Source: a virus
DNA length: 64,000 bases
Virus record (IMG/VR): IMGVR_UViG_3300045988_100686
Span: 83,680 to 147,679 of that record
Direction: 5' to 3' (one strand)
Program-made: the position numbers and the translations under genes
Shown here: in pieces, positions 1,612 to 63,857 of the stretch
Layout of the letters: each line of letters opens with the position of its first letter
How positions within the stretch are numbered: the first letter of the stretch is position 1
Notes under the pieces: model-generated
Told to the model about the DNA's origin: nothing
Database searches by the model: none
Seen by the model: the letters and a program-made list of their open reading frames with translations, nothing else

Positions 1612-4313
1612 TAGTACCTCCCGTCTTTACCTTTTCCGAATCCTGTTCCGCGTGCGTAGGAAGGAATAGGATTATAAGAGTGTAATGGACTACGTGATTG
1701 TGTAGCAGCGTTATCAATAAGCTTCTCTTTTAAGTATTTAAATCCAAAGTTAGCCATCCAATCATGTTTGTAGGTTGGGGCTTTATTGGTACCCTTCTGG
1801 AAGGGAACAAACTTTGGTGGACGCTTGCTAGGATTCTTGCGAATATCTGCTGCTAGCTGGTTATAGTCTACTACGTCTCCTTCAATGAGATCATCAAAAT
1901 CTCCCGGATCAATAATCTGTACGTAGTTTATTAATCCACGAGCGATTACCTCAAAGTTTTTCTTTACACTATCGAGTCCTGCACCATGGTACAGAGTATC
2001 AAGACTCTGAATAAACTGCTTGCGACCAGTATCTATGCCTTTGTAAGGTACAACCTTGCTAATGTTTAGAATACCGTCTGTTAATGGGTCGCCAGCTTCT
2101 ACTCTATCCCCAACCTTTACTTTCAGTGTTCTTGTTGGCGGTATGTAGTACTTCTTACGGCCTATGTATACGTTCTGTCCGCCTGCAGGTGCTGCCTGTA
2201 TGTTTGTGATTGTTCCAGATACTTCAGTAATAACTGCTGCACCACTAAACTTAGTGGACATATTAAAGAACGCCTTTACCGTGTTAAAACCAATTGCCTC
2301 ACCTGCTGCAGTACCTGCTGTATGTTTAGATGACAGGCCTAACTGTGTAAAAGGTTCTGAAATAGCGTGAGCAGATACTACACCTACATTTTCACCGATA
2401 TCAGGGAATTTCAATTTCTCGTTGTACCCGTAGCAATATTGGCATACACCATCATGTGCTTCACATGTAGCTGGGCTACGTACCTCAACCTGAGGAACTC
2501 CACGACGTTTTAATTGTTCATAATAGTTGGCATCGATAAACTTGTTTGTCTTCGCCTCAACACGGTTAATGATATTCTTAGTATCGTTAATGTCACGTAC
2601 TAAACCACGTTTACATCCGCAATCCTTTTTGGTAACTACGATATCAAGTACGTTGCCAATAAGTTCTTTTGCTAATGCGCCTGCAGGAGCTACGGATAGC
2701 TTTGCACCAACAGTACCTTTACGGGTGCCATAGGATGATACAAAGTAATCGGCAGGACTTAGACCCTCGTTGTATGATGTGTGAATCAAGGAAGGAATAA
2801 GTTTATCTTTAGGATCTGCTACTACTGTAGGACTAGTTATGATCTGCATTACTTGTCCTTTTGACCCCTTGGAGCCTGTATATGCCCACTGCTGGAATGT
2901 GTTGTCAGTTGCCTCATCTGTGAGTTTCTGTGCAAATGCCTGAGCTTTACGTAATATCTTGCCTTTTTCTGCATCGACTTGTTTGGGTGTAAGATCTTTG
3001 CGTTTGTCAATATCTGCCAGCTCTTGGTCAATCTTATTGAAGTATATGTTACGCTTTTTCTTCAACTCATCCATATCGAAGTCAGTTGCTTTGTAAGATA
3101 CACCTAATCTATAGGCAAATAATGCTCCCAACTCTTTTAGACCATCAGCAATCCTGGTATATTCTTTTGGCCATCTCTGTCCTACCTGGGTAAGAAGGCC
3201 GCTCATTACGGATTTATTCCACACTTTGTCATAATTACGCAATGGCATTGGGAATAGCTCATTGATAAGTACTGCACCTGCAGTTGTCTTAAACTGTCTG
3301 TATTGAACAGGGGCGTCTGGCTTAATCATTCCCATGCGGATATTTTCGTGAAGCTGTTTAACGTTTTGTACAGGAGTGAATCGTGTACTTTTATCAAACG
3401 TTGGGAGAGTCTTTGTTGCTGCAAATAATCCAAACACTGATTCCTGCTGTGGTAACATCATAGGTCCCATGTTGCGGGGTGAGAATAAGTTGTGACTTGG
3501 AGTCATTTTCTCCAGTGCTTCTAACCTTGCTTCTTCCGTTGCAGGTACATGAAGCTGCATGGTATCATAAACTAGAATACCGTTGGCTATGAAAAGTGGA
3601 AACTCCGGGACCGTGAAGTCGTAAGTTATTTCTTCTCGGTCAACTTCTTCTACAGAAGTCACCTCATCCCATACATATGGCAGGTTTAAATATGGATTTG
3701 CTGGGTTTACCTTAGCTACATCACTGATCTGTACTAGTGCGCCATTCTCTGGTATTCTTACTGCGTTGTAGTCCAAGTATAAACGTGTGTTTACTATTTT
3801 GCAAAAGATACCCTGACGTGCTAGTATTACTTTAGCTAATTCTAGCTCTTGCTTATCCTTTACCTTCCAGTACATACTAGGATTTTCTGTGTTATCTGTG
3901 GTATCAAAGTGGACCATTGCTAACAATGCCGTGCCAAGATCATCTGTTGATAAATTTAGCATATAATATGAAAACTTGTTTGGTTTAAAGTTATCCATTG
4001 CAAACTTACGCATAGCTTTTGCTTGTGCAGTTTTCTTTGGAATATATGATATCATACGCATTATAGGCACGAATTTACCAAGTGCATCCTGGGGAGGTAA
4101 TGGAGCAAAAAATGTTTCACTTCCGTTTGTTGCCAATGAGTGGTCATCGGTTACTGTGATCTCGTAGCCACAAGAGGTGCAGATTCTGTACATCTTCCCA
4201 TGCTCTGTGTGTACACTTCGCTCAGTGTAATCCATGAATTCATTGGTGTTTGTAGCAGGGCAATAGGTTAATACTTTTCCCTTAACTACAGTTGAGTTAC
4301 TTTGGGTACTCAT
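1611..4313 (-). CDS. RNA polymerase beta-prime C-terminal portion, preceded by a 250-aa split-intein C-fragment
   Basis: After residue 250 the protein reads TMQLHVPATEEARLEALEKM, which matches beta-prime QMAVHVPLSxEAQxEA directly after NADFDGD. The N-terminal 250 aa carry intein block B (ITVTDDHSLAT) and blocks F/G (ITYDFTVPEFPLFIANGILVYD). GGAGG lies 12 nt upstream of the ATG. Confidence 0.8.
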   Translation of the reverse strand: MSTQSNSTVVKGKVLTYCPATNTNEFMDYTERSVHTEHGKMYRICTSCGYEITVTDDHSLATNGSETFFAPLPPQDALGKFVPIMRMISYIPKKTAQAKAMRKFAMDNFKPNKFSYYMLNLSTDDLGTALLAMVHFDTTDNTENPSMYWKVKDKQELELAKVILARQGIFCKIVNTRLYLDYNAVRIPENGALVQISDVAKVNPANPYLNLPYVWDEVTSVEEVDREEITYDFTVPEFPLFIANGILVYDTMQLHVPATEEARLEALEKMTPSHNLFSPRNMGPMMLPQQESVFGLFAATKTLPTFDKSTRFTPVQNVKQLHENIRMGMIKPDAPVQYRQFKTTAGAVLINELFPMPLRNYDKVWNKSVMSGLLTQVGQRWPKEYTRIADGLKELGALFAYRLGVSYKATDFDMDELKKKRNIYFNKIDQELADIDKRKDLTPKQVDAEKGKILRKAQAFAQKLTDEATDNTFQQWAYTGSKGSKGQVMQIITSPTVVADPKDKLIPSLIHTSYNEGLSPADYFVSSYGTRKGTVGAKLSVAPAGALAKELIGNVLDIVVTKKDCGCKRGLVRDINDTKNIINRVEAKTNKFIDANYYEQLKRRGVPQVEVRSPATCEAHDGVCQYCYGYNEKLKFPDIGENVGVVSAHAISEPFTQLGLSSKHTAGTAAGEAIGFNTVKAFFNMSTKFSGAAVITEVSGTITNIQAAPAGGQNVYIGRKKYYIPPTRTLKVKVGDRVEAGDPLTDGILNISKVVPYKGIDTGRKQFIQSLDTLYHGAGLDSVKKNFEVIARGLINYVQIIDPGDFDDLIEGDVVDYNQLAADIRKNPSKRPPKFVPFQKGTNKAPTYKHDWMANFGFKYLKEKLIDNAATQSRSPLHSYNPIPSYARGTGFGKGKDGRY
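3564..4313 (-). other. split intein C-fragment (blocks B, F, G; about 250 aa)
   Basis: TxxH block B motif at aa 55-58. The C-terminal NGILVYD is followed by a +1 Thr. The extein resumes with exact beta-prime spacing. Confidence 0.65.
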
Positions 4314-4396
4314 TAAATTTCTAAACCTCCAATCTAATCTAGGTTTCTAAAGATCATTATACCGGGAAATTATGTAACAAAAAATCGTAAAAGTAA

Positions 4397-7114: not shown

Positions 7115-7928
7115 TTATACAATGGCTATGAATATTAAAAAGATAGAATTTGAAGACAATTCTGCTGTAGTAACCATGAGGGATCCTGACGAACTTATTG
7201 GTCTTGTACGTAAAAGAGTGTCGATTGATGCTCTAATTCAAGCCCTTGGAAAGATTAGTACATCCCAATCTATGCTTATTCCTCCTAACTGCAGGGGCAT
7301 TTGGGAGACTAAAAACAATAAGTATTTCCTGTTTATCATCCCGGCACACATGGGCAAGACTGCCGTAGTGTGGTATAAAACTGACACTGATAACTATGGA
7401 GCTCCGGGTAGTAGTACTAAGTTGGAGAACCAGCCTGAACATATTCAGTCAATGTATGAAGACTCAGAAGACAGTGACTACATTAGAGTGTTCAACACTC
7501 CATTCCCAGATGCGTGTGTGTTGATTAAAATGACAAAGGCTGGTAGCAATAAACTTATGTTTAATGATATCAGAGCATGGTCTATTAAGAGTACTATGCT
7601 TCCTCTAGATAAAACAGCAGTATACCGCTGGCCGTTCTTTAATATGTATGGTGATGCAAGAGTATGCATTGGTGATATCCCCAGAGAGTATCCTAATGTA
7701 GAATCTGTTGCTAGTATTATTAATTACCTATATATTGGCGTAGGTAACCATGATCTTGATCATACTCCATATGTAATTCCTGATAATAAGTTTGGAATCA
7801 AAAATTCTTTTCAGTTGGTCAAATACCTTGATGAAAACAAGTTGACTGTATTTCCAAGGGAGTTACTGTGTAGTTTTGGTACATCGATCATTGAAACAGT
7901 AGAAAATATTGTTGCTAATGGAAATTAA
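7095..7928 (+). CDS. putative E2-like (UBC-fold) ubiquitin-conjugating-like protein
   Basis: FFNMYGDARVCIGDI resembles the UBC active site HPNIxxxGxICLDIL (Asn, Gly, Cys flanked by aliphatics, Asp). It directly precedes the JAB and E1 genes. Confidence 0.45.
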   Translation: MLLKDGDYTMAMNIKKIEFEDNSAVVTMRDPDELIGLVRKRVSIDALIQALGKISTSQSMLIPPNCRGIWETKNNKYFLFIIPAHMGKTAVVWYKTDTDNYGAPGSSTKLENQPEHIQSMYEDSEDSDYIRVFNTPFPDACVLIKMTKAGSNKLMFNDIRAWSIKSTMLPLDKTAVYRWPFFNMYGDARVCIGDIPREYPNVESVASIINYLYIGVGNHDLDHTPYVIPDNKFGIKNSFQLVKYLDENKLTVFPRELLCSFGTSIIETVENIVANGN

Positions 7929-9793
7929 TGGAGGTAAAAATAATGGCAGTTCCAAACCAATATAATAAATATGCTTCTTTATATACTGTGCCCAAAAAGC
8001 CAGAACTCACAGACGTCCAAAAACGTCTTATTGAACGTATGCAACGTAGTCGCTGCAAAATCTGGGAGTCCTATGCTGCGTATACTGCAGCTGATGAATC
8101 TGATAAGAAACCAGACAATTACTTCCCAACTAAAACTGGTTGGGGTATTGCGCGCAAGCGTGTTCTCAATGGTAATAGTGTGGAGTTCGTTACAACTGTT
8201 CCAGAATGTCCGCTGGTTGATGAAATCCAACCCAAAGTTGTTCTTGATATTCATAATAAAATCCCTGGATCTCTGCTCCAGGAGATTCTTGCAAACTTTA
8301 ACAAAGTATGCGAGGACTCTAATAATGAGTGTGCTGCTCAGATTTACCGTGAGCGAGATGGTGAAAGAAAGTATTTCATTTATTACCCTGAACAAAAGGT
8401 GTCTACTGCTCAAGTAACCTATACTCATGATCCACAGCTCATGGAACTCGCAAAGGCATATGACCTCATCATGGAGCTGCATTCCCATGATTCTATGGGT
8501 GCATTCTGGTCTGGCACAGATGACAGTAATGAGAACACTTGTGGATTCTACATGGTAATTGGCAGATTTAACTCTTCTGTAGTTGAGTACAAATGCCGTG
8601 CAAAACTTGATAAACTGTATGCTGATTTTAATTGCTCTGAAATCTTTGATTTCGGTGACACACCTGAAGAACAAATCCTTACTCGTGAAAACTTTATTGC
8701 TCCGAATGATGAACTGGATAAGAAGATCACAAAAGAAAGCCTTACTTATTATAATGGTGCGTATCAAGCTTGTTATGACATGTGGAACTATGGTGGTTAT
8801 TCTTATCAAGGATACAATGACTATAATTATGGTAAATCAACTAAGAAATCTCAGAGATACCTTGCTAAAACAGAACTGGCTGCACGTAAACGCTTGATGG
8901 CTAAATTGAAGAATGCTCCGGAATCCATCTTCCCGGAAGACGCTCTTTATAATGAGCTCTGGGATCATGCAGACTATATCAAAGCCAGAAAACGTTGGGA
9001 ATGCTGTGGGTACTATGATAACCAGGAGGCCATGAAGGAATGCTGGAAACGAATCCCAAAAAACCAGGCAGGCGCGGAAGAGGAGGTGAGTCAAGACGCC
9101 GTCGTTGCCTCTGATTATGTAACTCGTATGAGCAAGTGCTACTCTGCAGATGGGTTCCAAAATACCCATACAGCTGGTGGAGTTGCCACTGGCATTGAAA
9201 CTGCGGAATATCTTGCTGGTAATGGAGATGAGGCAGCTGCACGTTATGGCACGCTTCCGGGCAAGATTCAACAATACAGTAATTTTGATTTAGATCTTGG
9301 CACTGCTGATGTGAATGACCAAGACTACAATGATAATCTTAATATGGCTGTGGCTAGCAGAACTGAGTCCCAGTCTAACATTGAGACATTCTTGCAGGAA
9401 GGAATGGGCGGGGTCCGTGAAGAGACTGAAAACAAATTTATTGCTAATGTAATGAATATTGCGTTTCTTCACACCCCGTCAGCCAGTATCAACGTCGGAG
9501 TGTTCTGGGAGTTGCTTACACCGGTTGAGAAAACTAGACTGGCAAAAGCATTCCACTGCTCTGTTATGGATCTTGCTACTCTGCTTATTGGCAGCAGCGC
9601 TGTTGTTGCATCTCCTGATGTAGCAGAGTTCCTGTATAAGTGCATCCTTGGTGATGCTAAGTATGTAGAATGTAAGCTTGGTCTTATTACCAGTAAGGTC
9701 ATGGCTGAAAAGCCGTCTACTGCTGCTCAATTTGTAGCACTCATCCATGAGATGCTTGAGGTTGAAAGAGATGTTAAGGAGGCAAAGGAATGA
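7928..9793 (+). CDS. JAB/MPN (JAMM) metalloisopeptidase domain protein (621 aa)
   Basis: A complete JAMM motif is present: E...HSH-DSMGAFW-S-GT-D (HxHx7Sx2D). A large Cys/Trp-rich C-terminal extension follows. The start overlaps the E2-like stop (TAATG). Confidence 0.7.
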   Translation: MEVKIMAVPNQYNKYASLYTVPKKPELTDVQKRLIERMQRSRCKIWESYAAYTAADESDKKPDNYFPTKTGWGIARKRVLNGNSVEFVTTVPECPLVDEIQPKVVLDIHNKIPGSLLQEILANFNKVCEDSNNECAAQIYRERDGERKYFIYYPEQKVSTAQVTYTHDPQLMELAKAYDLIMELHSHDSMGAFWSGTDDSNENTCGFYMVIGRFNSSVVEYKCRAKLDKLYADFNCSEIFDFGDTPEEQILTRENFIAPNDELDKKITKESLTYYNGAYQACYDMWNYGGYSYQGYNDYNYGKSTKKSQRYLAKTELAARKRLMAKLKNAPESIFPEDALYNELWDHADYIKARKRWECCGYYDNQEAMKECWKRIPKNQAGAEEEVSQDAVVASDYVTRMSKCYSADGFQNTHTAGGVATGIETAEYLAGNGDEAAARYGTLPGKIQQYSNFDLDLGTADVNDQDYNDNLNMAVASRTESQSNIETFLQEGMGGVREETENKFIANVMNIAFLHTPSASINVGVFWELLTPVEKTRLAKAFHCSVMDLATLLIGSSAVVASPDVAEFLYKCILGDAKYVECKLGLITSKVMAEKPSTAAQFVALIHEMLEVERDVKEAKE

Positions 9794-11295
9794 AGAAAAC
9801 TGTGTTAGCTATCGGGCCTGCTAGTCCGTATGTGAATCTCTTGGCAACTGTTCAAGAGCATTTAAATGACTTAAGTGTCATTAAACCTAATTTTAATAAC
9901 CTTCATATCATTCAGCTCGGTGCTGGTGGTACTGGCGGTTATGTAGCGTATGAAATACTTCGTATGCTTGGTAATATTCCAGAGGTGTTAAAACCGTATA
10001 TCCATTATACACTGATAGATGGTGATACGTATGAGCCAAAGAATATTGGCAGACAACTTTGCTGTGAAGATGATATCGGTAAGTATAAAGCTCAGGTCCT
10101 CGTTGAAGAGTATGGAGAACTCTTTGGTGTTACTCCAGACCAAGCGTCTCATATCGATGAGTATTTTACTGCTATCAGCCAGCTGGCTGTTCTTCCAAAA
10201 TTCCCTCTGCCAATCTGGTCTGTATTTGTAGACGATGAAGTAGAAAAGTTCTTCAAAGACTCTGAAGCTGCAGTTGCACTTAATTCTAAACAGCCACATA
10301 TCAATGCAACAGCTACGTCATTTATCATTATTGACTGTGTTGACAAAAATGCTCCGCGTAAACTATTACATGATTACTTTACAGATATCTCCAGTTTGCC
10401 CAGTACTTTGGCGCGTCTGAACTATTGTTGCAATGCTGTTCCTGACTGTGATAAGATCACTGCTACTGGGCAGCAAATCATTGCACATAACAACGGTGGT
10501 AACAGCCTGCTTGGAAGTATGTACGGTGTCACCCCGATTCGTGATATCTACATCATCTCATCCGGCAATGGCAAGTATACTGGCCAAGTATCCTGGGGAA
10601 GAAAAAGCTTCCTTGGTAACTCCAGTGGTTCTATGCACTACAAGGATATCTTTGGTGACAAGGATGTATCTTCTATTATTGGACCTAAGATTAATACGAA
10701 TGATGAAGTAGAGGCTGTCGATATTACTCCGGGTATGACAGACGCTGATGTAAACCAGTTGCGGCTTAAAGCATTGGCTGAGGAGTATTTTACACCGTCT
10801 AATGTAAAGAGATTCCAGGATAATGTATTCCAAGAAATTGTGGATCCTGCTACTGGCAGATTGTCAAATGGTTACATTAAGTCTATCCCGATTCCAATTA
10901 CTAACCCAGAGGAACCTGAGCTTGAAACTGGACACCCGATGCTCAAAAACATGAATATGTTCATGTCTGCTTTTATGTCTACACCTACTCCGTATGACAG
11001 GTTCCCGGAGCTTACAGACCTTGAGATTGATGCAAGAGAAGAGGCGATGAGCTGCGCGGAGCGTGCAGAACATAATGTACAGTCTATCAATGCTAATAAA
11101 ACTGCTGCAGCTCTTGTAGTAAATTACTTCACATCTATCTTTAATGGTATGTATATGTTTGAAAAGGAAGTACCCGTTCTTACTACTGAGACTACACGTT
11201 TCAACATATTAACGGGCGAGTACTCTTCTGACCCGATTACTACGGATTCTCTGCGTATCCCTGTGGAAACACGCAAAAGAGTTCGCGCATTTTAA
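9790..11295 (+). CDS. E1-like ThiF/MoeB-family adenylyltransferase (501 aa)
   Basis: Motifs IIQLGAGGTGGYVAYEI (Rossmann GxGxxG), LIDGDTYEPKNIGRQL and EDDIGKYKAQVLVEEY match ThiF/MoeB/E1 signature blocks. ATGA overlap with the JAB gene. Confidence 0.7.
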   Translation: MKKTVLAIGPASPYVNLLATVQEHLNDLSVIKPNFNNLHIIQLGAGGTGGYVAYEILRMLGNIPEVLKPYIHYTLIDGDTYEPKNIGRQLCCEDDIGKYKAQVLVEEYGELFGVTPDQASHIDEYFTAISQLAVLPKFPLPIWSVFVDDEVEKFFKDSEAAVALNSKQPHINATATSFIIIDCVDKNAPRKLLHDYFTDISSLPSTLARLNYCCNAVPDCDKITATGQQIIAHNNGGNSLLGSMYGVTPIRDIYIISSGNGKYTGQVSWGRKSFLGNSSGSMHYKDIFGDKDVSSIIGPKINTNDEVEAVDITPGMTDADVNQLRLKALAEEYFTPSNVKRFQDNVFQEIVDPATGRLSNGYIKSIPIPITNPEEPELETGHPMLKNMNMFMSAFMSTPTPYDRFPELTDLEIDAREEAMSCAERAEHNVQSINANKTAAALVVNYFTSIFNGMYMFEKEVPVLTTETTRFNILTGEYSSDPITTDSLRIPVETRKRVRAF

Positions 11296-40854: not shown

Positions 40855-42030
40855 TTAGAGGGAAGCTGTGCCACCCTCTAGAACTAGAGTATCTCCAGCT
40901 GGAACAAAGAGTTTAGTTGTACTGAGGCTTGCAGCTGCAATTTTATCATCAGTTACAGCTCCAATAGCCAATTTTGCAGTGTTCACAGCTTCATTAGCCA
41001 ATTTTGCAGTGTTCACGGCTCCGTCAGTCAGTTTATCAGTGTTCACAACTCCAGCAGCAATACTTGGTGCAGCTACAGTGCCGGTCAAATCACCTGTAAG
41101 AACATCTTCTTTCTTTGCATATGGGGTGAGATCTGCTGCATCCGTTACACTAATAGTACCATCATCAGTGACAGTTATATTCTTACCAATCTTCACGCTG
41201 CCAAGAGTATCCGCGGAAGCAGCTGGCAGAGTGTAACGCTCACTTGCAAGGACTACCTTATCTTCTACTTTTTTCAGAGCAGCATTAAGGGAGTCTGTTT
41301 CCTCAAAGTAGGTACCAGTATAACCAGTCATTGCAGTGACATCACTGGATTTGTGTGTATGTGCCTCAGGTCTAAACTCAGTTGGCTTATTTTCTACTCC
41401 AGACCAGTCAATAGCAGTTGCACGGCCAGCAGTGTATTCAGTGAACGCTTCAGCAGTACCAAGTTTAGTCTCATCAGAAACAAGGTACAGGATACCTGTC
41501 TCAGTTACTTTTACAGTATCACCATTCTGTACATCTTTAGTAGTTAGTGCAAATCTTCCAGCATCATTAGTTACCAATACCAAATTATCCAGTGCACCCT
41601 TTGGCAGACGTGCAATATCAATAGTACCAGTAGTAATCTTTGAAGCATCCAAATTTGCCAGAGTAGCATTGATTTCAATGTTTTTAGAGCCATCAAAAGT
41701 TGCAGCGCCAGTAACAGCACCACTCAATGCAATATTTCTAGCAACAGCAAGTTTATCTGCAGTCTCTGCAGCATTAGCTTTACCGCCGTCGAACTTAGCT
41801 TCCAGTGCTGCAATAGCGTCCTCAAGACGTTTATCTACATATGGAAGGCCATTCCACGCAGTTGTACCATCACCGAATTTTACTCGGTTGGTATCTGTTT
41901 CTCTACCTGCTTCATTTTGCAGTAGGACAGGATTTACGTTTCTCCAATTTTCAGCAGTGTCACCACGGAACGTAAATCTAATTTTCAGGTTGTTTAAAGC
42001 CACTAGCATTTCCTCCTTGAATGACCTCAA
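40855..42030 (-). CDS. tail fiber protein (391 aa) with HylP-like N-terminal domain and (A/G)VNT(A/D)KL repeats
   Basis: RGDTAENWRNVNPVLLQNEAGRETDTNRVKFGDGTTAWNGLPY is present. Repeats AVNTAKLANEAVNTAKLAIGAV are also present. Confidence 0.55.
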   Translation of the reverse strand: MRSFKEEMLVALNNLKIRFTFRGDTAENWRNVNPVLLQNEAGRETDTNRVKFGDGTTAWNGLPYVDKRLEDAIAALEAKFDGGKANAAETADKLAVARNIALSGAVTGAATFDGSKNIEINATLANLDASKITTGTIDIARLPKGALDNLVLVTNDAGRFALTTKDVQNGDTVKVTETGILYLVSDETKLGTAEAFTEYTAGRATAIDWSGVENKPTEFRPEAHTHKSSDVTAMTGYTGTYFEETDSLNAALKKVEDKVVLASERYTLPAASADTLGSVKIGKNITVTDDGTISVTDAADLTPYAKKEDVLTGDLTGTVAAPSIAAGVVNTDKLTDGAVNTAKLANEAVNTAKLAIGAVTDDKIAAASLSTTKLFVPAGDTLVLEGGTASL

Positions 42031-52266: not shown

Positions 52267-52442
52267 GTAACTGGATAATCAAAGAACTAGAGAAAAAGGC
52301 TTGGGCTGAAGCTGTCTTTCCAGAGATTGACAAATTTTATGCCAAAATGCTAGAGCGTGGCACAAGAAGATTTGTCATGACGGGAGTGCAAGAAGGCGCA
52401 ACTTACGCAAGCAAACAAAACAAGAGAAAGGATGGTAAATAA
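52263..52442 (+). CDS. small basic protein (59 aa) translationally coupled between the 545-aa gene and the RNAP gene
   Basis: ATGA overlaps the upstream stop and TAATG overlaps the RNAP start. MSNWIIKELEKKAWAEAVF... It falls below the 60-aa track cutoff. Confidence 0.4.
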   Translation: MSNWIIKELEKKAWAEAVFPEIDKFYAKMLERGTRRFVMTGVQEGATYASKQNKRKDGK

Positions 52443-55400
52443 TGTATCTTAATACAGCACAAAAATGGCAAGCCATTCTTAAAAAAGTAGAAGAAGGCGT
52501 AAAATCCATCTTCCCAATAGAGGCCAAAACCGGCAAAATTGAATTAATAAAGGTAGAAATACCAAATAATACTAATGCATCTATCTCAGCACAAAAAGAT
52601 AGACTTCTTACTGGAACCACCTTAGGCACACCAGTATATGGAACATTCAGACTTGTAAAAAATGATGGAAAGACTGAGACTAATAGAGTTAAACTTATAG
52701 ACCTGCCGATCCTTACTGATCGTGGTACATTTATTGTACAAGGTAAGGATTACTCAGTATTTAACCAAGTCCGTCTGCGTCCAGGATGTTTTGTACGTAA
52801 GACTAACGATTCCGACGAAGTTTTTGCTCAGTTCAACTTAGCTAAAGGATTAGGATTTAAGCTATACATGGATAACAATGGTGTATTCTATGTACGTTTT
52901 GATAAATCAGCGTTATCAAAGTCCTCCAAGCGTATTCCTTTGTATTCTCTGCTTCATGCACTTGGCACATCTGATGGAGAAATTCAAGGTCGCTGGGGAG
53001 ACACTGTATTTAAAAACAACGTAGCTAAATCCAGCCCAGATGACGTTAAAGCCATAATAGCTCAGTGCGTATATCCAACCAAGCGTACAGGTAATGATAA
53101 CAAGGATCTTCAAGAATACTTTAAAGGAAACATTCTCAACGAAGAAACAACCAGAGTAACACTTGGTCATGCATACCAAACTGTTACACCACAGGCCATC
53201 CTAGATGCTACTGTTAAAATGGTTCGGGTATATAATAACAAAGCAGATGAGGATGACCTAGACTCACTATTATTTAAGGAAGTTTTGGGTGTTGAAGATC
53301 ACTTGATGCTTAGAATTGAAAAGAAGGCTAAGGAAGAAGGTCTCATTTATAAGGTGATGAATAGAATTGATGCTGGGTATCCGCTGAAATCTATTATTCT
53401 ACCAAATTTCTTAACTAAGCTTATTGAAGGATTCTTTACAAAATCATCACTCTCTGCTCCACAAACAGAGATTAACCCAATCGAAATCCTAGAAACTGGT
53501 CACAAGATTACTGCAATGGGTGAAGGCGGCATTGGAAGTGACCGCGCGATTCCTATGTCTGCACGCAACCTCCATCCTTCTCACTTTGGATACCTTGATC
53601 CAGTCCGTACTACAGAATCTGAACGTGTAGGTGTTGACTTACGTACTACACTGCCAACAGTAATAAAGAACCGCAATATCTACTCTGAATTCATTGATAG
53701 ATCAGGCAAAAAAGTCATGTTAAAACCAATGGATCTTGTAGACAAAGTAATAGCATTTCCAGGGCAGGAACAAAAGCAAACTGTACGTGTACTGTTAAAT
53801 GGTCATTTAAAAGAAATGTCAAGAAATAAAGTAGACTATTGGGTTCCAAAATCCTCTAACATGTTTACTGTAACTACCAATTTGGTACCATTTCTTCATA
53901 ATGACCAAGGTAACCGTGTAACAATGGCCGGACGTATGGTTACTCAGGCAGTTCCGCTTGTACATCGTGAGGCTCCTTTGGTACAAATTCGTGACCAATC
54001 TGGTGAGTATAACACCATACAGGAACGATATGGCAAGGAGTACTTTGTTCCTAAGTCCCCAGAAGACGGTACCGTAACTGAAGTTACTAAGGACTACATT
54101 AAGGTTAACAATACTAAAGTAGAAATTTACAATAATTTCCCGCTTAACTTAAAGACATTTTTGACAATGTACCCACTCGTCAAGGTTGGTGACAAGGTTA
54201 AAAAAGGTCAAGTACTAGCTGATTCCAACTTTACTAAGGGTGGAGAGTTGGCCCTTGGAACAAACCTTAACGTAGCATATATTCCGTATAAAGGATACAC
54301 CCACGAGGACTCTATTGTAATCAGTGAATCTACAGCTAAAAAATTGACCAGCCAGCATATGTACACCTGTGAGTTTGAAACAGATGTAGACACACTGGTT
54401 GATAAAGGTGTGTTTATTAAGTGGTTTCCTACAAAAATTACACCTGCAAACATTGCTAAACTAAGTGACGACGGTGTTATTAAAAAAGATAGTAAAGTAA
54501 TCCGCGGAGATGTACTTATTGCAGGTATGCGTTATAAAACACTGACTAGCTCTGACAATATGTTGCGTAGACTTCGTGGAAACTTGGTTAACCCATATAA
54601 AGACGCTTCTGAAAAATGGGAACATGATGCTGAAGGAACTGTTGTAGAAGTAGTCCGCAAAGGAAAACTAATCCGCGTAGTAGTTGTAACAGAAGACTCT
54701 GCTAAGCGTGGTGATAAAATTTCTGGCTTACACGGCAATAAAGGTACTATCGGCCTAATCCTTCCAGATGATGAGATGCCTGTTGATAAAAATGGCAAAC
54801 CTGTTGATGCAATGTTGAACCCTGCATCTGTTCCGTCTCGTGTAAATCCAGGACAAATGTATGAAGCCTTGGAAGGTAAACGTGCACTTGCAGAGGGACA
54901 CAAGGTAGTCATTGATAACTTTGATTCAGCAGATTCTAGCAAGAAAGTATTGAATCAGTTGAAGCAAGAAGGCATAGACGTTGAAGAGACACTATATGAC
55001 CCGAAAACTAAACGTCCTCTAGGAAAAGTGTTTACTGGTACTCCGTATTTCATTAAACTGCACAAACAAACAGAAGGCAACTTCTCTAGTCTATACAGAG
55101 GTGCATACGACGCAAATAACCAGCCTATTAAAGGTGGAGAGGAAGGTTCTAAAGGTGTTGGCCAACTTGATGTTTACGCTTTACTTGGACATAATGCGAG
55201 GAACAACCTGGCAGAAATGGCTACATATAAGTCAGATAAAAACGATGATTTCTGGAACAGCCTTGAAGCTGGCATTGCTCCTGCGCCAGCAAAAGAGCCT
55301 TTTGCGTTCAAGAAGTTCAAATCGTTAGTTACCGCAGCAGGTATTGGCATAAAGTCAGATGACAACGCCATGACATTAGCTCCTCTGAATGACAAAATGA

Positions 55401-56557
55401 TCATGGATATGTCAGCAGGTGCAATACGAAAAGGTGCAATACTAGAAAACCACATGGGTAAAGACAGACCTGAATCCGGCGGTATCTTTGACCCTGTGGT
55501 TACAGGTGGTTTGAAAGGACAACAGTGGTCACATGTAAACCTAGCTGCACCTATCGTCAATCCGCTGTTTGAAGGCGTAGTAAGCACGCTTCTGCACAGG
55601 GATATATCAGGTGAAAATGGCAAAAAAATCCAAAAAGAACTTGCAGCAATAAATGTACCTAAACGTATTGGTGAAGTTAGTGCAGCTCTTAAGGTAGCAA
55701 CAGGAAGTAATCGCAACAAGCTTCTAAAAGAACTCAAGTATCTGACAGCGCTAAGAAAAGCTAACATGAACCCTGCAGACTATGTATTAACTAAATTCCC
55801 GATCATACCTCCGCAATTCCGCCCGATTTACAATTCGCAAACTGGTGGTCTTCCGATGGTAGCAGATGTTAACTACCTTTATAAAGACCTATTGAATGTA
55901 AATGAGAAACTAGAGAATATGAAAGACTACCCAGATTCTGAAAAAGGGGCATTACTCAAGGATCTTCGTCAGTCTGCACAGGCCATAGTTGGACTTATGG
56001 CTCCTGTTAACAAGCAAAATGAAAAACGTGGCGTAACAGGCTTCCTTCCTCAACTAACAGGCTCCAATTATCAAGGCCAGGGAACCAGCAAAGAGTCGTT
56101 CTTCCATAGAAAAATTTTAAAACGTCAACAAACGCTGACCGGTCGTGGCACAATCGGACCTGACCCGACGCTTAATGTTGATAATATCAAGATTCCTTGG
56201 GAAATGGCATGGAAGATTTATCAACCATTTGTTATTGCAGAGTTCCGCAAACGTGGCATCAACATCTTGAAGGCTAGAGAAGAAATCAAAAATCGCACTC
56301 CTGTAGCGAAACAACTTCTTGAGATTCAGATGAGAAAACGTCCAGTATTATTAAACCGTGCTCCGACCCTGCACAAGTATAATATTATGGCGTTTACTCC
56401 ACTTGGAACAGAAGGTAAAACAATTTATGTACCGCCTCTGGTAATCAAAGGTTTCGCAGCGGACTTTGATGGTGACTCCGTTGCTGGAGATACTCAAGTA
56501 CTAGTGCAAGATTTGCATGGAAATATTACCCTTAAACAAATAAAAGATGTAGAATAA
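52442..56557 (+). CDS. fused RNA polymerase beta + beta-prime N-terminal half, ending in a 26-aa split-intein N-fragment
   Basis: Beta motifs: TDRGTFIVQGKDYSVFNQVRLRPGCF, ISGLHGNKGTIGLILPDDEMPVD..LNPASVPSRVNPGQ and GQLDVYALLGHNARNNLAEMATYKSD. Beta-prime motifs: FPIIPPQFRP, LLNRAPTLHKYNIMAF and ADFDGD. Then comes SVAGDTQVLVQDLHGNITLKQIKDVE (intein block A) and stop. Confidence 0.85.
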   Translation: MYLNTAQKWQAILKKVEEGVKSIFPIEAKTGKIELIKVEIPNNTNASISAQKDRLLTGTTLGTPVYGTFRLVKNDGKTETNRVKLIDLPILTDRGTFIVQGKDYSVFNQVRLRPGCFVRKTNDSDEVFAQFNLAKGLGFKLYMDNNGVFYVRFDKSALSKSSKRIPLYSLLHALGTSDGEIQGRWGDTVFKNNVAKSSPDDVKAIIAQCVYPTKRTGNDNKDLQEYFKGNILNEETTRVTLGHAYQTVTPQAILDATVKMVRVYNNKADEDDLDSLLFKEVLGVEDHLMLRIEKKAKEEGLIYKVMNRIDAGYPLKSIILPNFLTKLIEGFFTKSSLSAPQTEINPIEILETGHKITAMGEGGIGSDRAIPMSARNLHPSHFGYLDPVRTTESERVGVDLRTTLPTVIKNRNIYSEFIDRSGKKVMLKPMDLVDKVIAFPGQEQKQTVRVLLNGHLKEMSRNKVDYWVPKSSNMFTVTTNLVPFLHNDQGNRVTMAGRMVTQAVPLVHREAPLVQIRDQSGEYNTIQERYGKEYFVPKSPEDGTVTEVTKDYIKVNNTKVEIYNNFPLNLKTFLTMYPLVKVGDKVKKGQVLADSNFTKGGELALGTNLNVAYIPYKGYTHEDSIVISESTAKKLTSQHMYTCEFETDVDTLVDKGVFIKWFPTKITPANIAKLSDDGVIKKDSKVIRGDVLIAGMRYKTLTSSDNMLRRLRGNLVNPYKDASEKWEHDAEGTVVEVVRKGKLIRVVVVTEDSAKRGDKISGLHGNKGTIGLILPDDEMPVDKNGKPVDAMLNPASVPSRVNPGQMYEALEGKRALAEGHKVVIDNFDSADSSKKVLNQLKQEGIDVEETLYDPKTKRPLGKVFTGTPYFIKLHKQTEGNFSSLYRGAYDANNQPIKGGEEGSKGVGQLDVYALLGHNARNNLAEMATYKSDKNDDFWNSLEAGIAPAPAKEPFAFKKFKSLVTAAGIGIKSDDNAMTLAPLNDKMIMDMSAGAIRKGAILENHMGKDRPESGGIFDPVVTGGLKGQQWSHVNLAAPIVNPLFEGVVSTLLHRDISGENGKKIQKELAAINVPKRIGEVSAALKVATGSNRNKLLKELKYLTALRKANMNPADYVLTKFPIIPPQFRPIYNSQTGGLPMVADVNYLYKDLLNVNEKLENMKDYPDSEKGALLKDLRQSAQAIVGLMAPVNKQNEKRGVTGFLPQLTGSNYQGQGTSKESFFHRKILKRQQTLTGRGTIGPDPTLNVDNIKIPWEMAWKIYQPFVIAEFRKRGINILKAREEIKNRTPVAKQLLEIQMRKRPVLLNRAPTLHKYNIMAFTPLGTEGKTIYVPPLVIKGFAADFDGDSVAGDTQVLVQDLHGNITLKQIKDVE
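56477..56554 (+). other. split intein N-fragment (block A only; Ser1)
   Basis: SVAGDTQVLV fits block A C/S-[LV]-[AS]-x-D-T-x-V directly after NADFDGD. Confidence 0.65.
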
Positions 56558-56567
56558 CTTTATTGCT

Positions 56568-56596
56568 CCCCTAGGATTAACCTAGGGGATTTTTCT
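56568..56596 (+). terminator. rho-independent terminator after the RNAP gene
   Basis: The arms cccctagg and cctagggg flank an attaa loop, followed by aTTTTTc. Confidence 0.7.
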
Positions 56597-56606
56597 TATC
56601 CAAATT

Positions 56607-56916: not shown

Positions 56917-57017
56917 AAAGTTGTGGGATAAGTATGGTGTAGAAAAGATTTAGTCCATTTCTACAAAAATTTAATTGTCTATCACACGACGTAAAACTGT
57001 GAGAAAGAGGTTTTATC
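56917..57017 (+). repeat. about 100-nt intergenic repeat, copy 1 (GTGGGATAAGTATGGTGTAGAA-hairpin-AATTGTCTATCACACGACGTAAAACTGTGAGAAAGAGG)
   Basis: About 90% identical to 58446..58546. Each copy ends at the RBS/ATG of a small membrane-protein gene. Confidence 0.7.
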
Positions 57018-57230
57018 ATGGAAATGAACGAAATGAACAATGTAGTGGGTTCTGTAGAGATGAGCACTCCTGTTGTAGCACAAGATACCTCTGTGTCTAA
57101 TACTGGCATCAATCTGAAAACTGTAGGCCTGGCGGGTCTGGCAGCTGTAGTCGCTGGTGCAGCTTTGTACTACGGTTACAAAAAGTACAAAGATCATAAA
57201 GCTACAGCAACAGCAGAAGAATCCAAATAA
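57018..57230 (+). CDS. small single-pass membrane protein (70 aa), Met/acidic N-terminus, TM, YGYKKYK tail
   Basis: Paralog of 58928..59137 (GLAGLAAVVAGAALYYGYKKYKDHK vs LIGFIVGAAAAYGYHKYKQRK). Confidence 0.5.
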   Translation: MEMNEMNNVVGSVEMSTPVVAQDTSVSNTGINLKTVGLAGLAAVVAGAALYYGYKKYKDHKATATAEESK

Positions 57231-57236
57231 TCTTTT

Positions 57237-57313
57237 GTCCTGAGCATGACGTTAAAAGGCTCAAAGTGATTCGTCTATCACACGACGTAAAATTGTGAGA
57301 AAGAAGGTTTACT
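57237..57313 (+). repeat. intergenic repeat family 2, copy 1 (GTCCTGAGCATGACGTTAAAAGGCTCAA ... TCTATCACACGACGTAAAATTGTGAGAAAGAAGG)
   Basis: The 28-nt core is identical at 57537..57564. The leader half is shared with family 1. Confidence 0.6.
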
Positions 57314-57526
57314 ATGAAAACTATTCAAACTGCCTTATTCAATATGCTAATGTGGTTGGCAACATGCAAAACCTATATGAGAATTATGTTTGTGGTTTCC
57401 TTGGTGTGGAACATCGTGATCCTGCCAGTACATATGATTTTCGCTGTTGCATCCCGTCATCCAAAAACATATTTTCAGAACCTCTGGTGGTCTGTAAAAA
57501 CCACCTGGGAGTGGTTCGTTCGCTAG
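57314..57526 (+). CDS. small membrane protein (70 aa)
   Basis: ORF track. The RBS is gagaaagaagg. The protein is hydrophobic. Confidence 0.45.
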   Translation: MKTIQTALFNMLMWLATCKTYMRIMFVVSLVWNIVILPVHMIFAVASRHPKTYFQNLWWSVKTTWEWFVR

Positions 57527-57617
57527 TATTCTCTCGTCCTGAGCATGACGTTAAAAGGCTCAATTATTTTTTTAGTGTCAAGCTCGTGACGAAAACTAGA
57601 GCGTAGGAGGTAATATT

Positions 57618-58155: not shown

Positions 58156-58470
58156 ATGGCTGAAATAACAACAAAAGTAAACCTTACTGGACTCCCAATT
58201 GATATCCTTAAATTTTATCGCGGTACTACATTAATCTGCAGCATGTACACCATTAAAGATCCGAAGAAGCAAAAGGAATACTTTACTTACTCTGGAGATG
58301 GAGATGTTAATGCTTTTCCAGTAGTTTCTAGAAGAACATCTACTAAAATCACATCTGGCGAAGGTACACTGTTGTATGGTAAGTACCTTACGTCTGGTGA
58401 ATTTATCATGGAAAACGGGGATGTCTTTTCCAAAAAAATCCTGCAAACTTGTGGGATAAGTATGGTGTAG
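58156..58470 (+). CDS. hypothetical protein (about 104 aa; start chosen at MAEITTK)
   Basis: AAAGGAAACAAAA lies before ATG 58156. The track gives an alternative start at 58135. Confidence 0.45.
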   Translation: MAEITTKVNLTGLPIDILKFYRGTTLICSMYTIKDPKKQKEYFTYSGDGDVNAFPVVSRRTSTKITSGEGTLLYGKYLTSGEFIMENGDVFSKKILQTCGISMV

Positions 58471-58546
58471 AAGAAATTTAGTTGTTTCTCTACAAAAATT
58501 TAATTGTCTATCACACGACGTAAACTTGTGAGAAAGAGGTACTAAC
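58446..58546 (+). repeat. about 100-nt intergenic repeat, copy 2
   Basis: See 56917..57017. Confidence 0.7.
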
Positions 58547-58756
58547 ATGAAAAAGTTTAAACAAAGTGTTGAAAGAGCGCTCATTATTTTGTCTGTAGTA
58601 ATTATTGCTACATCTATCGTATTCGCAGCAGCAATACTCGCGTTGCTCGCTGTCGCAGCTGTCGTAGGTCTCACGTATAAGCTGTATGAAGAGGATAAAA
58701 AGGAAAAGGAGGCTGAAGAAAAAGAAAAGGAGAAGGAGGAGAGCGAAAATGAATAA
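58547..58756 (+). CDS. small single-pass membrane protein (69 aa) with EK-rich tail
   Basis: ORF track. The TM segment is ALIILSVVIIATSIVFAAAILALLAVAAVVGL. Confidence 0.5.
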   Translation: MKKFKQSVERALIILSVVIIATSIVFAAAILALLAVAAVVGLTYKLYEEDKKEKEAEEKEKEKEESENE

Positions 58757-61593: not shown

Positions 61594-62253
61594 ATGTATT
61601 TGTACGGCATCTACCCAACTGGGAATTCTGATGTAATACCAGTAGCATTAAGTTCTACCTTAGTGATTTCTCACATGTATGTATCAGATGAACCAATTCA
61701 AAAAATTGCAACACGTATGGAGTTCCGGATTCCATATCAGCAAGCAGTGGATATTCTAAAGGAGGTCAATGTTAGCATAGCTGAAACTATTGAAAATAAC
61801 CAGTCTGACTTTGTATACTTTGCGATTGCAATTAACCCAAAGTATGACCAAAGTAAACAGGTTATAGAACGTACATTAACCTTTAATGGACGGAGTATTC
61901 CTATAAAGAACGTTTCATTTGGAGCGATTATGGAGAGTCAGCAGGACTTTATCTATGATAGTGAAGTTGTATTGCTTCCTATCCGACCAAAATTAATCGT
62001 AGATGGACATGAAACTACACCTTGCAGCTTATGTGAATATTCAAACTTGAAACACGGTAAAAAATATTGTGTATACTATACAAGAGGATTTCAGTGTTTA
62101 TTTACGAGGAATAATGCCTTGCAAATTACATGTGAGGGTTTTGCTGAGGCATGTGTTCCTATTGCTCCAGAGCTACCTGATAATCTTCAGGATGATCCAC
62201 TTCAAACAGATTACGGAATCGATGTAGATGAAGAAACATGGGAGGTAGACTAA
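61594..62253 (+). CDS. hypothetical protein (219 aa), first gene of the RT operon
   Basis: AAAGGAG lies upstream. The 3' end overlaps the RT start by 16 nt. Confidence 0.55.
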   Translation: MYLYGIYPTGNSDVIPVALSSTLVISHMYVSDEPIQKIATRMEFRIPYQQAVDILKEVNVSIAETIENNQSDFVYFAIAINPKYDQSKQVIERTLTFNGRSIPIKNVSFGAIMESQQDFIYDSEVVLLPIRPKLIVDGHETTPCSLCEYSNLKHGKKYCVYYTRGFQCLFTRNNALQITCEGFAEACVPIAPELPDNLQDDPLQTDYGIDVDEETWEVD

Positions 62254-63857
62254 TGACAATCACATTCTATAATTTACCAAAGTATTTATCTGCTGTTGGT
62301 GCTAACGTTAATGATTTGTGCACCGTAACGAATGATCTTGAGTCATTTGAATTCAGTTCATCGAAGCCACAGAAAGTATGTCAAAACATTATCAATACGA
62401 CATACCCTTTCTGTGATATTTTTACATTATCTCAAGCACTTGATATTAGTCCAGGAGTATTAAGTAACCCTGATTTTATAGCTTCCGGTGTAGGATATAA
62501 AACATTTTATATTGACAAAGAAACTGGTAAGGTGTCTCGTTACCCTGTATTTGCAAAGTACAGACGCATTGATGCCCCTCCTCCGCTGTTAAAAGAGATC
62601 CAACGCCGTCTTGCATCTGCATTCACAGTTTTCCCTGCCCACCCAGCTAATTTTGCGTTTATACATAATAAATCAATAAAAGACGCGCTTGAGATGTTAA
62701 AGAACAGCCAAACAATTATACATGTGGACTTGAAAGATTTTTTCGATAGTCATAGCGAGGTGTATTTAAATAAAAAAATTGGTAAACTCATTTATGCTAA
62801 AGAGACTCTGGAAGAGTATCAATGGAAGTTTGTACGGGCTATCACTAGGTGGGTAACTCTTAAACACTCCCTTCCTCAAGGAGCTCCAACGTCACCTATT
62901 ATTTCTGTAGTTGCTAACTATGAAATGGACTCCAAGCTAGCAGAAGCTGCTGATACACAAGATTTATCCTATGTTCGATACGCGGATGATTTGTTCTTTG
63001 GCGGTAATATATCTGCTGACGCAGCGCTGGATTTCATTGAATCGTTACCAGAAATGGTCCAGCCTTTTAGAATAAACCATAGTAAGGTTGGGGTTATGAC
63101 AGACTCCGTACGGCCAATCCCTACGGGGGTTATTATCAAGATAGCCCCCAAAAGGATTCCTCCGAGTCAGTCTGCTAAAATTTTATCTGAATGCCGACAA
63201 ACATTAGGTGACCAAACTGCAGAGTTGTTAGTAAATGATTATGAGCTTACAATAAAGACAAAGGTTCTCCGTGATACATCGGTATCTGATGCTACAATGT
63301 TATTAACTCCATTCATAACATGGTTGACAACGAAATATCCATCTTTAAATGCACACTGTAAATTACGCATATACCACCTTGCTAAAACAAAGGCAGTTTT
63401 AGGAGCACATATATATAATGGAGAGATTAAGTTTTCTCGAAAACAATATAATAATATGCGCTTACAAGCCATGCTGATAGGGATGCAAACTGCATTTAAA
63501 TATGCATCTAAGATCCTATCACCAACATTAGATGGATTACGTTCTGTGTATGTTATGAACTCCGTACATGAAGTAGCTGACTTAATTGACGGGGTAACTA
63601 TGTACCCATTTACTTCAGACGTTAGCCACAAACGTAACTTATTGCAGAAACCAATGTCCTATAAACAGTACAGGGGTAAAGTGAATTGGATTAATCAGAT
63701 TCAACCCGAGAAGGCTGCAAAACTAAAACGTGTGGAAGTTAAATTCTTTAAGTCAACACTTTATAAAATTTGTGGATTTTTGGAGACCACTGAAGTGATC
63801 CAAGAAGCAGCTATTAACTCAATTATTGAACAGGCGGTTACACAGTATTATGAATAA
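62238..63857 (+). CDS. reverse transcriptase (539 aa; retron/Abi/DRT-like, non-DGR)
   Basis: RT motifs: KYRRIDAPPPLLKEIQRRL (motifs 1/2), IIHVDLKDFFDSHS (A), LPQGAPTSPIISVVAN (B') and YVRYADDLFFGG (C, YADD). A C-terminal extension of about 250 aa follows. Confidence 0.8.
   Translation: MGGRLMTITFYNLPKYLSAVGANVNDLCTVTNDLESFEFSSSKPQKVCQNIINTTYPFCDIFTLSQALDISPGVLSNPDFIASGVGYKTFYIDKETGKVSRYPVFAKYRRIDAPPPLLKEIQRRLASAFTVFPAHPANFAFIHNKSIKDALEMLKNSQTIIHVDLKDFFDSHSEVYLNKKIGKLIYAKETLEEYQWKFVRAITRWVTLKHSLPQGAPTSPIISVVANYEMDSKLAEAADTQDLSYVRYADDLFFGGNISADAALDFIESLPEMVQPFRINHSKVGVMTDSVRPIPTGVIIKIAPKRIPPSQSAKILSECRQTLGDQTAELLVNDYELTIKTKVLRDTSVSDATMLLTPFITWLTTKYPSLNAHCKLRIYHLAKTKAVLGAHIYNGEIKFSRKQYNNMRLQAMLIGMQTAFKYASKILSPTLDGLRSVYVMNSVHEVADLIDGVTMYPFTSDVSHKRNLLQKPMSYKQYRGKVNWINQIQPEKAAKLKRVEVKFFKSTLYKICGFLETTEVIQEAAINSIIEQAVTQYYE

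Follow-up and report, generated by a model that had tools for sequence, protein, structure and literature searches.

Wu, Hu and Liu reportedly found in 1998 that the halves of DnaE of Synechocystis sp. PCC6803 are encoded by far-apart genes on opposite strands and are joined by trans-splicing. Atypical split inteins, in which the N-terminal fragment (IntN) has about 15–37 amino acids (aa) (PMC13014065) and carries block A alone, blocks B, F and G being on the C-terminal fragment (IntC), include AceL-TerL and GOS-TerL (Thiel 2014; Bachmann & Mootz 2015), split inteins of the metagenomic terminase large subunit (PMC13014065), as well as VidaL and PolB16, the last being slow and, according to a 2026 paper, the sole known natural cysteine-independent atypical split (PMC13014065). 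The known inteins of RNA polymerase (RNAP) are the archaeal Mja rPol A'/A'' and Nph rPol A'' and those in RPB2, RPA2 and RPC2 of eukaryotes and nucleocytoplasmic large DNA viruses (NCLDV) (PMC1635734). In the present study, a window of 64,000 nucleotides (nt) from a virus (IMG/VR record IMGVR_UViG_3300045988_100686, positions 83,680 to 147,679; features are given in window positions) was analysed, in which the β' subunit of a phage RNAP is interrupted directly behind the Mg-binding motif DFDGD by an intein with its two parts in separate genes. It is likely that obligatory trans-splicing by this atypically split class-1 intein, with Ser1, Thr+1 and a terminal Asp, yields a β-β' chain of 1995 aa.

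The arrangement resembles that of Ssp DnaE, an essential polymerase subunit whose halves are likewise encoded at distant sites on opposite strands and joined by trans-splicing, but the latter is a canonical split (IntN about 123 aa, IntC about 36 aa) with Cys nucleophiles and a terminal Asn and resides in a cellular genome. A preliminary description of this stretch had called partners on opposite strands very unusual; the layout is indeed present, although Synechocystis dnaE-n/dnaE-c is its classic precedent. With AceL-TerL and GOS-TerL the phage RNAP intein shares a short IntN (25 and 37 aa in the two) ending after the first helix (S2 position), a long IntC with blocks B, F and G, and a phage or metagenomic source. 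The likeness is one of architecture; the host protein and insertion site are different and these two are cysteine-dependent rather than Ser1/Thr+1; the phage RNAP intein further differs by its Tyr-Asp end and by a 250-aa IntC containing a decayed endonuclease remnant. The PolB16 OarG intein (PMC10189870) is also atypically split, begins with Ser1, has a hydroxyl residue at +1 and is cysteine-independent, but its IntN has 15 aa, its split follows strand β2 (S1), it resides in a PolB gene and its +1 residue is Ser. Thus, atypical splits being known from AceL-TerL, GOS-TerL, VidaL and PolB16 and distant halves from Ssp DnaE, the type of element is already known; among natural atypically split inteins that are cysteine-independent, the phage RNAP element would be the second and the first with a terminal Asp. 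The archaeal, eukaryotic and NCLDV inteins of RNAP also occupy conserved sites near the active centre, in the two largest subunits, and have to splice before the enzyme folds, but all are contiguous and reside in cellular or NCLDV genes, unlike the split phage one.

Two genes for one β-β' polymerase

The first gene, an open reading frame (ORF) at 52442-56557(+), encodes a precursor of 1371 aa. Its matches to the Pfam families RNA_pol_Rpb2_6 (E 1.8e-55) and Rpb2_2/3, followed by Rpb1_1/2, identify it as β fused to the N-terminal part of β', and the same fused layout was found in Salmonella phage Arash gp206 and Vibrio phage D69, with 33-35% identity over 97% of the query (tblastn). The N-extein (52442..56476, plus strand; 1345 aa) ends with the Mg-binding sequence ...NRAPTLH...GFAADFDGD. 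It is followed by IntN, SVAGDTQVLVQDLHGNITLKQIKDVE (26 aa; 56477..56554, plus strand), which begins with Ser1 of block A directly behind ...KGFAADFDGD, and by the TAA stop (56555..56557, plus strand), the position of which is equivalent in relatives. The junction reads DFDGD|S-V-A-G-D-T-Q-V-L-V, with Ser1 and Val2 invariant in 8 aligned inteins; as in class-1 inteins, a Ser/Cys nucleophile is the first residue of block A and directly follows the N-extein. Ten nt past the stop, a hairpin like that of an intrinsic terminator, TCCCCTAGG-ATTAA-CCTAGGGGA followed by a run of T residues, was located at 56567..56599 (plus strand), with a stem of 9 bp including 6 GC pairs, in a terminator scan that returned 2 sites against 0.2 expected.

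The second gene, at 4313-1611(-), encodes a precursor of 900 aa and possesses its own ATG and ribosome-binding site, a Shine-Dalgarno sequence GGAGG (4326..4330, minus strand) 12 nt 5' of the ATG. Its IntC (250 aa; 3564..4313, minus strand), which carries blocks B, F and G, was delimited from the Pfam family PF14890, a hidden Markov model (HMM), invariant columns, alignment, and an AlphaFold2 model searched with Foldseek. The C-extein (1614..3563, minus strand; 650 aa) comprises the remainder of β' with Rpb1_3/4/5 and starts with Thr+1 in TMQLHVPATEEAR. Each of the two genes thus has translation signals of its own (TAA with terminator; GGAGG with ATG), and they lie on opposite strands 52.2 kb apart (4313 to 56557). 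The preliminary description had placed a 26-aa fragment after DFDGD and its partner 52 kb away on the other strand; the coding positions and the stop were exact, and the partner gene lies as described.

The C-junction reads ...FIANGILVYD|TMQLHVPATEEAR, or in short ...LVYD|TMQLHVP. Invariant residues of IntC include His35, T55-D-D-H58 of block B and TYDFTVPEFPLF of block F. The T-x-x-H of class-1 block B is thereby present and invariant across the split family, and blocks F and G, expected to end in Asn, Asp or Gln followed by Cys, Ser or Thr, end here as TYDFTVPEFPLFIANGILVYD|T. In block G, NGILVYD, the last residue is Asp250 and the penultimate one is Tyr, so that a Tyr-Asp pair, which had escaped the preliminary description, replaces the usual His-Asn. 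His35, invariant in 8/8 aligned inteins, falls in the HMM alignment on the R-H of PI-PkoII, where the NX histidine is located; the residue preceding it is Val or Leu, whereas motif NX has Arg or Lys. The NX histidine upstream of block B is critical in Ser1 inteins according to Pasch et al. 2023 (PMC10189870).

The alignment to intein profiles that had been proposed earlier gave a match of C-protein residues 34-248 to the Pfam family Intein_splicing, PF14890 (profile positions 42-153/155, E 1.2e-7), although against the cut-off of 35.8 bits the native C-protein scored 32.1, below it, and the IntN+IntC fusion 36.0. An HMM of 35 contiguous inteins of the DFDGD site matched IntC with E 4.6e-24. 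About aa 91-205 of IntC are occupied by a decayed half LAGLIDADG domain; the centre of IntC aligned only to the second LAGLIDADG half and the first half is deleted, which indicates that the homing endonuclease has decayed.

Removal of the intein predicts a spliced β-β' chain of 1345 + 650 = 1995 aa, and the figure of about 2020 aa given earlier has to be replaced by it. The predicted ligated junction peptide is GFAADFDGDTMQLHVPATEEAR. Intein-less homologues (for example ...DFDGDQMNFHVPAS... and ...ADFDGDQMNFHVPAS...) are colinear across the junction, as seen for ...GFAADFDGD + TMQLHVPATEEA... against ...GFNADFDGDQMNFHVPASDKA... in protein P0014, and in a tblastn search with the C-protein, bacterial rpoC/β' genes in several records of the phage collection matched from aa 250. 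Thus, the two exteins together restore the catalytic loop without loss or duplication of a residue, in agreement with the earlier placement of the insertion directly behind DFDGD of β', and Rpb1_1/2 of the N-protein is reunited with Rpb1_3/4/5 of the C-protein across DFDGD.

Relatives, fold and the reality of the split

Homologous N-proteins (8, with 51-99% identity) all end with DFDGD-SV[AS]G[DE]T...IK[DY]V, after which comes the stop, either directly or behind a single residue (E, D or T), except that one lineage is extended by 6 more residues, given as NESPAKK. IntN was also conserved in 8 IMG/VR loci. The homologous C-proteins have a common start point and all retain TDDHSL and YD|T. Overall, the split layout is kept in at least 4 phage lineages at 50-70% identity, and both genes were found on opposite strands of 4 independent IMG/VR contigs, 24-56 kb apart: 56 kb on 3300045988_113839, 52-55 kb on _167780 and _152794 if these are circular, and 24 kb on 3300042923_000307.

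As the window is one single sequence, the split might be suspected to be an artefact of mis-assembly, sequencing error or frameshift, or a decaying pseudogene. The preliminary description had named mis-assembly, or genes contiguous in reality, as what would overturn it. However, identical 1371-aa and 900-aa proteins were called in the Logan assembly of ERR414371, and the identical 900-aa protein also in NCBI GCA_900525205.1; at least 8 related contigs have the stop and start at equivalent positions; a terminator follows the N gene and a ribosome-binding site precedes the C gene; both ORFs are long and unbroken, and the splice blocks are conserved. Self-BLAST of the window also revealed no inverted repeats able to drive a switchable inversion. 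Since the layout is conserved in relatives and recurs on other contigs, and since identical proteins occur in independent assemblies, mis-assembly, sequencing error and pseudogenisation can be excluded for practical purposes, and the probability left to such an origin is negligible. An inversion switch rejoining the gene was considered separately and rejected, as inverted repeats were absent near 4.3 and 56.5 kb in the self-BLAST.

The concatenated IntN+IntC of four lineages were aligned with contiguous inteins at the same site of other phage RNAPs, namely a mini-intein of 169 aa (L027) and LAGLIDADG maxi-inteins (L017, L021 and L026). The contiguous inteins bridge IntN and IntC, IntN aligning to their first 26 or so residues, and the split point coincides with a loop of variable length in them. 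The family profile matched solved inteins, PI-PkoII with E 1.3e-15 and V-ATPase inteins with E 6.5e-13 (profile positions 2-278), and weakly the structure of PolB16 OarG (8cpn, E 2e-4).

An AlphaFold2 model of a construct composed of 9 N-extein residues, IntN, IntC and 11 C-extein residues had a predicted local distance difference test score (pLDDT) of 82.5 and a predicted template modelling score of 0.82, while an earlier model from 5 sequences (pLDDT 58) was too poor for use. The modelled IntN consists of two strands (intein residues 7-11 and 17-21) and a short helix (22-24) with pLDDT of about 80, and values below 50 are confined to the extein ends and a six-residue junction linker. All 50 of the 50 Foldseek matches listed from the PDB were inteins or intein-like HINT domains (among the latter two bacterial intein-like domains and one Hedgehog); endonuclease-bearing VMA inteins ranked first among them (TMq 0.70), and mini-inteins reached TMt values of up to 0.78. 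The HINT fold of class-1 inteins is thus predicted by the model, the Foldseek matches and PF14890. Because the modelled IntN ends after the first helix and a disordered linker follows, the break corresponds to the S2 position (after α1) of atypical split inteins rather than to S1 (after β2), and the sizes of 26 and 250 aa, with block A alone on the short piece, conform to the same architecture. The earlier assignment to the atypically split inteins is accordingly backed by sequence, profiles, model, colinearity and conservation.

An exhaustive profile search for the family detected 785 protein clusters with E<=0.001, of which 215 had E<=1e-10. Among the best 150 listed, most were fused β-β' phage polymerases of 1900-3300 aa with a contiguous intein, and an insertion of 440-570 aa directly followed D[FYH]DGD wherever the motif matched that pattern. 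Consequently, the term very unusual, applied previously to the intein, does not hold for the site (215 clusters, mostly contiguous) but does hold for the split form, which was seen in only about five clusters. These data point to the Mg-binding loop as a major intein landing site across uncultured phages with giant fused β-β' polymerases. The last intein residue at 111 scored junctions was Asp in 77 and Asn in 28, with Thr next in 96, and the penultimate residue was mostly Tyr or Trp (proteins P0130-P0274). Asp/Gln-terminated inteins, in which Asp or Gln cyclises in place of Asn and a penultimate His is often absent, have been described as isolated cases (Amitai et al. 2004; PMC4031507), whereas most junctions of the DFDGD-site family have Asp. 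Such a large natural series of Asp-terminated inteins would be of use for intein chemistry. A subgroup of the family ends with LSN|T and has Gln, Tyr, Ala, Glu or Gly as the first residue after DFDGD, which suggests either a shifted boundary or a mechanism other than class 1.

The same allele is also split elsewhere, with an IntN of 129-139 aa and a short IntC (L029, L030 and L035; P0157 and P0240; IntC about 55-63 aa in P0157, P0240 and L029) or with an IntN of 44 aa (L032-L034 and L036). In L030 and L036 an additional ORF lies between adjacent intein halves, in the style of the fractured genes (Dassa 2009), in which adjacent halves on the same strand flank a free endonuclease ORF; the window has no such arrangement.

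The N gene gave no megablast match in 50,697 phage records, IntC alone gave no tblastn match in deposited phages, and a contiguous DFDGD-site intein matched in these only LAGLIDADG domains of unrelated genes, indicating that no deposited phage carries the element. In the literature searched, no paper was found that describes an intein in β' of a phage RNAP or at DFDGD. A scan of genome contigs produced only block F/G matches in Chloroflexota inteins and hence no clue to the host.

Probable trans-splicing and the possible origin of the split

Between lineages, the splice regions of IntC shared 62-82% identity, with nonsynonymous divergence (dN) of 0.12-0.38, and the neighbouring extein 77-87% identity (dN 0.18-0.42), whereas the endonuclease remnant shared only 20-31% (dN 0.62-1.04). 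As judged from these alignments, the splice blocks are kept about as well as the extein while the LAGLIDADG remnant decays. In addition, the +1 position is occupied by Thr in 96/111 intein-bearing alleles against 5/109 intein-less homologues, in which Gln is dominant at the corresponding position. This enrichment fits selection for a ligation nucleophile, and since ligation requires Thr+1 but cleavage alone does not, it favours true splicing.

In the most likely scheme, the two separate transcription units would give the β-β'N-IntN (1371 aa) and IntC-β'C (900 aa) precursors, and the 26-aa IntN would dock into the 250-aa IntC to complete the HINT fold. Ser1 would then undergo an N-O acyl shift (oxyester route), aided by Thr55 and His58 of block B and probably by His35 of IntC; the acyl group would be moved onto Thr+1, Asp250 would cyclise in place of the usual Asn, and an O-N shift would form the peptide bond, restoring the loop as ...ADFDGD-TMQLHVP.... 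Splicing, slow in some cases, is documented for inteins ending in Asp or Gln and for those devoid of the penultimate His (PMC4031507).

The main alternative reading is that the halves associate without ligating, acting as a dimerisation module or by cleavage only, which would leave a two-chain enzyme nicked after DFDGD. Phage Arash and L012-L019 have an intein-less β' in two genes, so this lineage tolerates a broken β', and the terminal Tyr-Asp is off the His-Asn optimum. However, from RNAP architecture, an uncleaved intein of 276 aa on the Mg-binding loop would be expected to occupy the active centre, an argument also made for other RNAP inteins (PMC1635734); no variation was seen across the split family at Ser1, the His of block B or the last residue, Asp; Thr+1 is present in every split relative, in line with its bias in the larger set; and the natural split at +90 is absent from the window's clade. 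Association without ligation is therefore considered unlikely, and trans-splicing remains the favoured explanation.

Several points weigh against trans-splicing or limit the assignment of IntN. IntN alone was undetected by Pfam, and the IntN+IntC fusion still aligned from profile position 39 only; IntN was also missed by the HMM of 35 distant contiguous inteins and by a single-sequence search of the PDB. Its assignment is accordingly based on position, block A, conservation, alignment to closer inteins and the AlphaFold2 model, for which the input alignment was shallow (18 sequences, their N and C rows unpaired). Synonymous divergence was saturated, so that the dN values are relative and not a formal dN/dS. 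The Tyr-Asp terminus deviates from the canonical one, and slow splicing is possible in variants of this kind (PMC4031507). A second intact β' is possible beyond the 64-kb window. Finally, the actual splicing of the halves, its chemistry and the evolutionary route are what we infer from the features described above.

As to the origin, the ancestor was most plausibly a LAGLIDADG maxi-intein of the large family at the DFDGD site, in which half of the endonuclease decayed and a genome rearrangement cut the gene within the disordered intein loop. As the halves would re-associate, such a split could be tolerated and need not be adaptive. An origin by one inversion is geometrically possible; it was unsupported by synteny with phage Arash.

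The distant transcription units might themselves be adaptive, trans-splicing serving as a temporal AND-gate or assembly checkpoint of the phage RNAP. At least 4 lineages keep the two genes on opposite strands and tens of kb apart, and the N gene is situated in the portal/terminase block, the C gene in a leftward unit adjoining the E2/JAB/E1 operon. The conserved layout is, however, also expected from inheritance after one rearrangement, and in other phages this intein is contiguous or has adjacent halves, so that distance is unneeded for its function. The idea of a checkpoint is pure speculation, its sole support being the conserved separation of the genes, and an adaptive role of the distance is doubtful. 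If it were true, active polymerase would be made only when both precursors are expressed, providing a timing switch to phage-driven transcription. If the halves do splice, irrespective of such a role, a phage multisubunit RNAP would stay inactive until two separately encoded proteins come together and are spliced at the Mg-binding loop. For protein engineering, in which cysteine-free split inteins with a short IntN are in demand, the family offers several natural variants with IntN of 25-32 aa, Ser1 and Thr+1.

Other mobile elements and neighbouring genes

Group I introns, homing endonucleases and a second intein are also found in the β-β' gene across phages. A second contiguous intein of about 383 aa, with Cys1 and LAGLIDADG, was observed in β of the close relatives L005 and L008 (locus 7504-8654); it reads ...NLK|CPSGDM...LVIHN|TFITMYP, and its site corresponds to aa 571/572 of the window's N-protein, which lacks it (NLK-TFLTMYP). 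In a 70%-identical relative (L009), a group I intron was located in β' at 10860-11083, just 5' of DYDGD (Rfam RF00028, 80.5 bits, E 1e-20), together with an apparent second short interruption ahead of the split-intein IntN. In Vibrio phages D181 and D148, the match to the β-β'N homologue falls into two parts, which an annotated homing endonuclease, a further mobile element of this gene, separates. In the intein-less Salmonella phage Arash (L001) and L012-L019, β' is broken 87-90 aa past DFDGD into a separate gene, located in Arash on the same strand 4.7 kb further downstream; no such break occurs in the window's clade.

Near the β'-C gene, three consecutive ORFs at 7095-11295(+) matched the Pfam families Prok-E2_D, Prok-JAB and ThiF (E1-like), and by these matches look like a phage operon for ubiquitin-like conjugation and deconjugation. 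A protein with Mtd_N (major tropism determinant) is encoded at 40855-42030(-) and a reverse transcriptase (RVT_1, E 5e-16) at 62238-63857(+), a pair which suggests a diversity-generating retroelement. Examination for its template and variable repeats showed no adenine-specific mismatch pattern in three repeat pairs of the window, and a template repeat may be situated outside the window, past its end. Direct repeats of 40-110 nt with 87-93% identity form a family in the region of small ORFs that immediately follows the RNAP N gene; they were located by self-BLAST of the window at 56917-57024 / 58445-58553, with shorter ones at 57269-57320 and 57228-57264 / 57527-57563.

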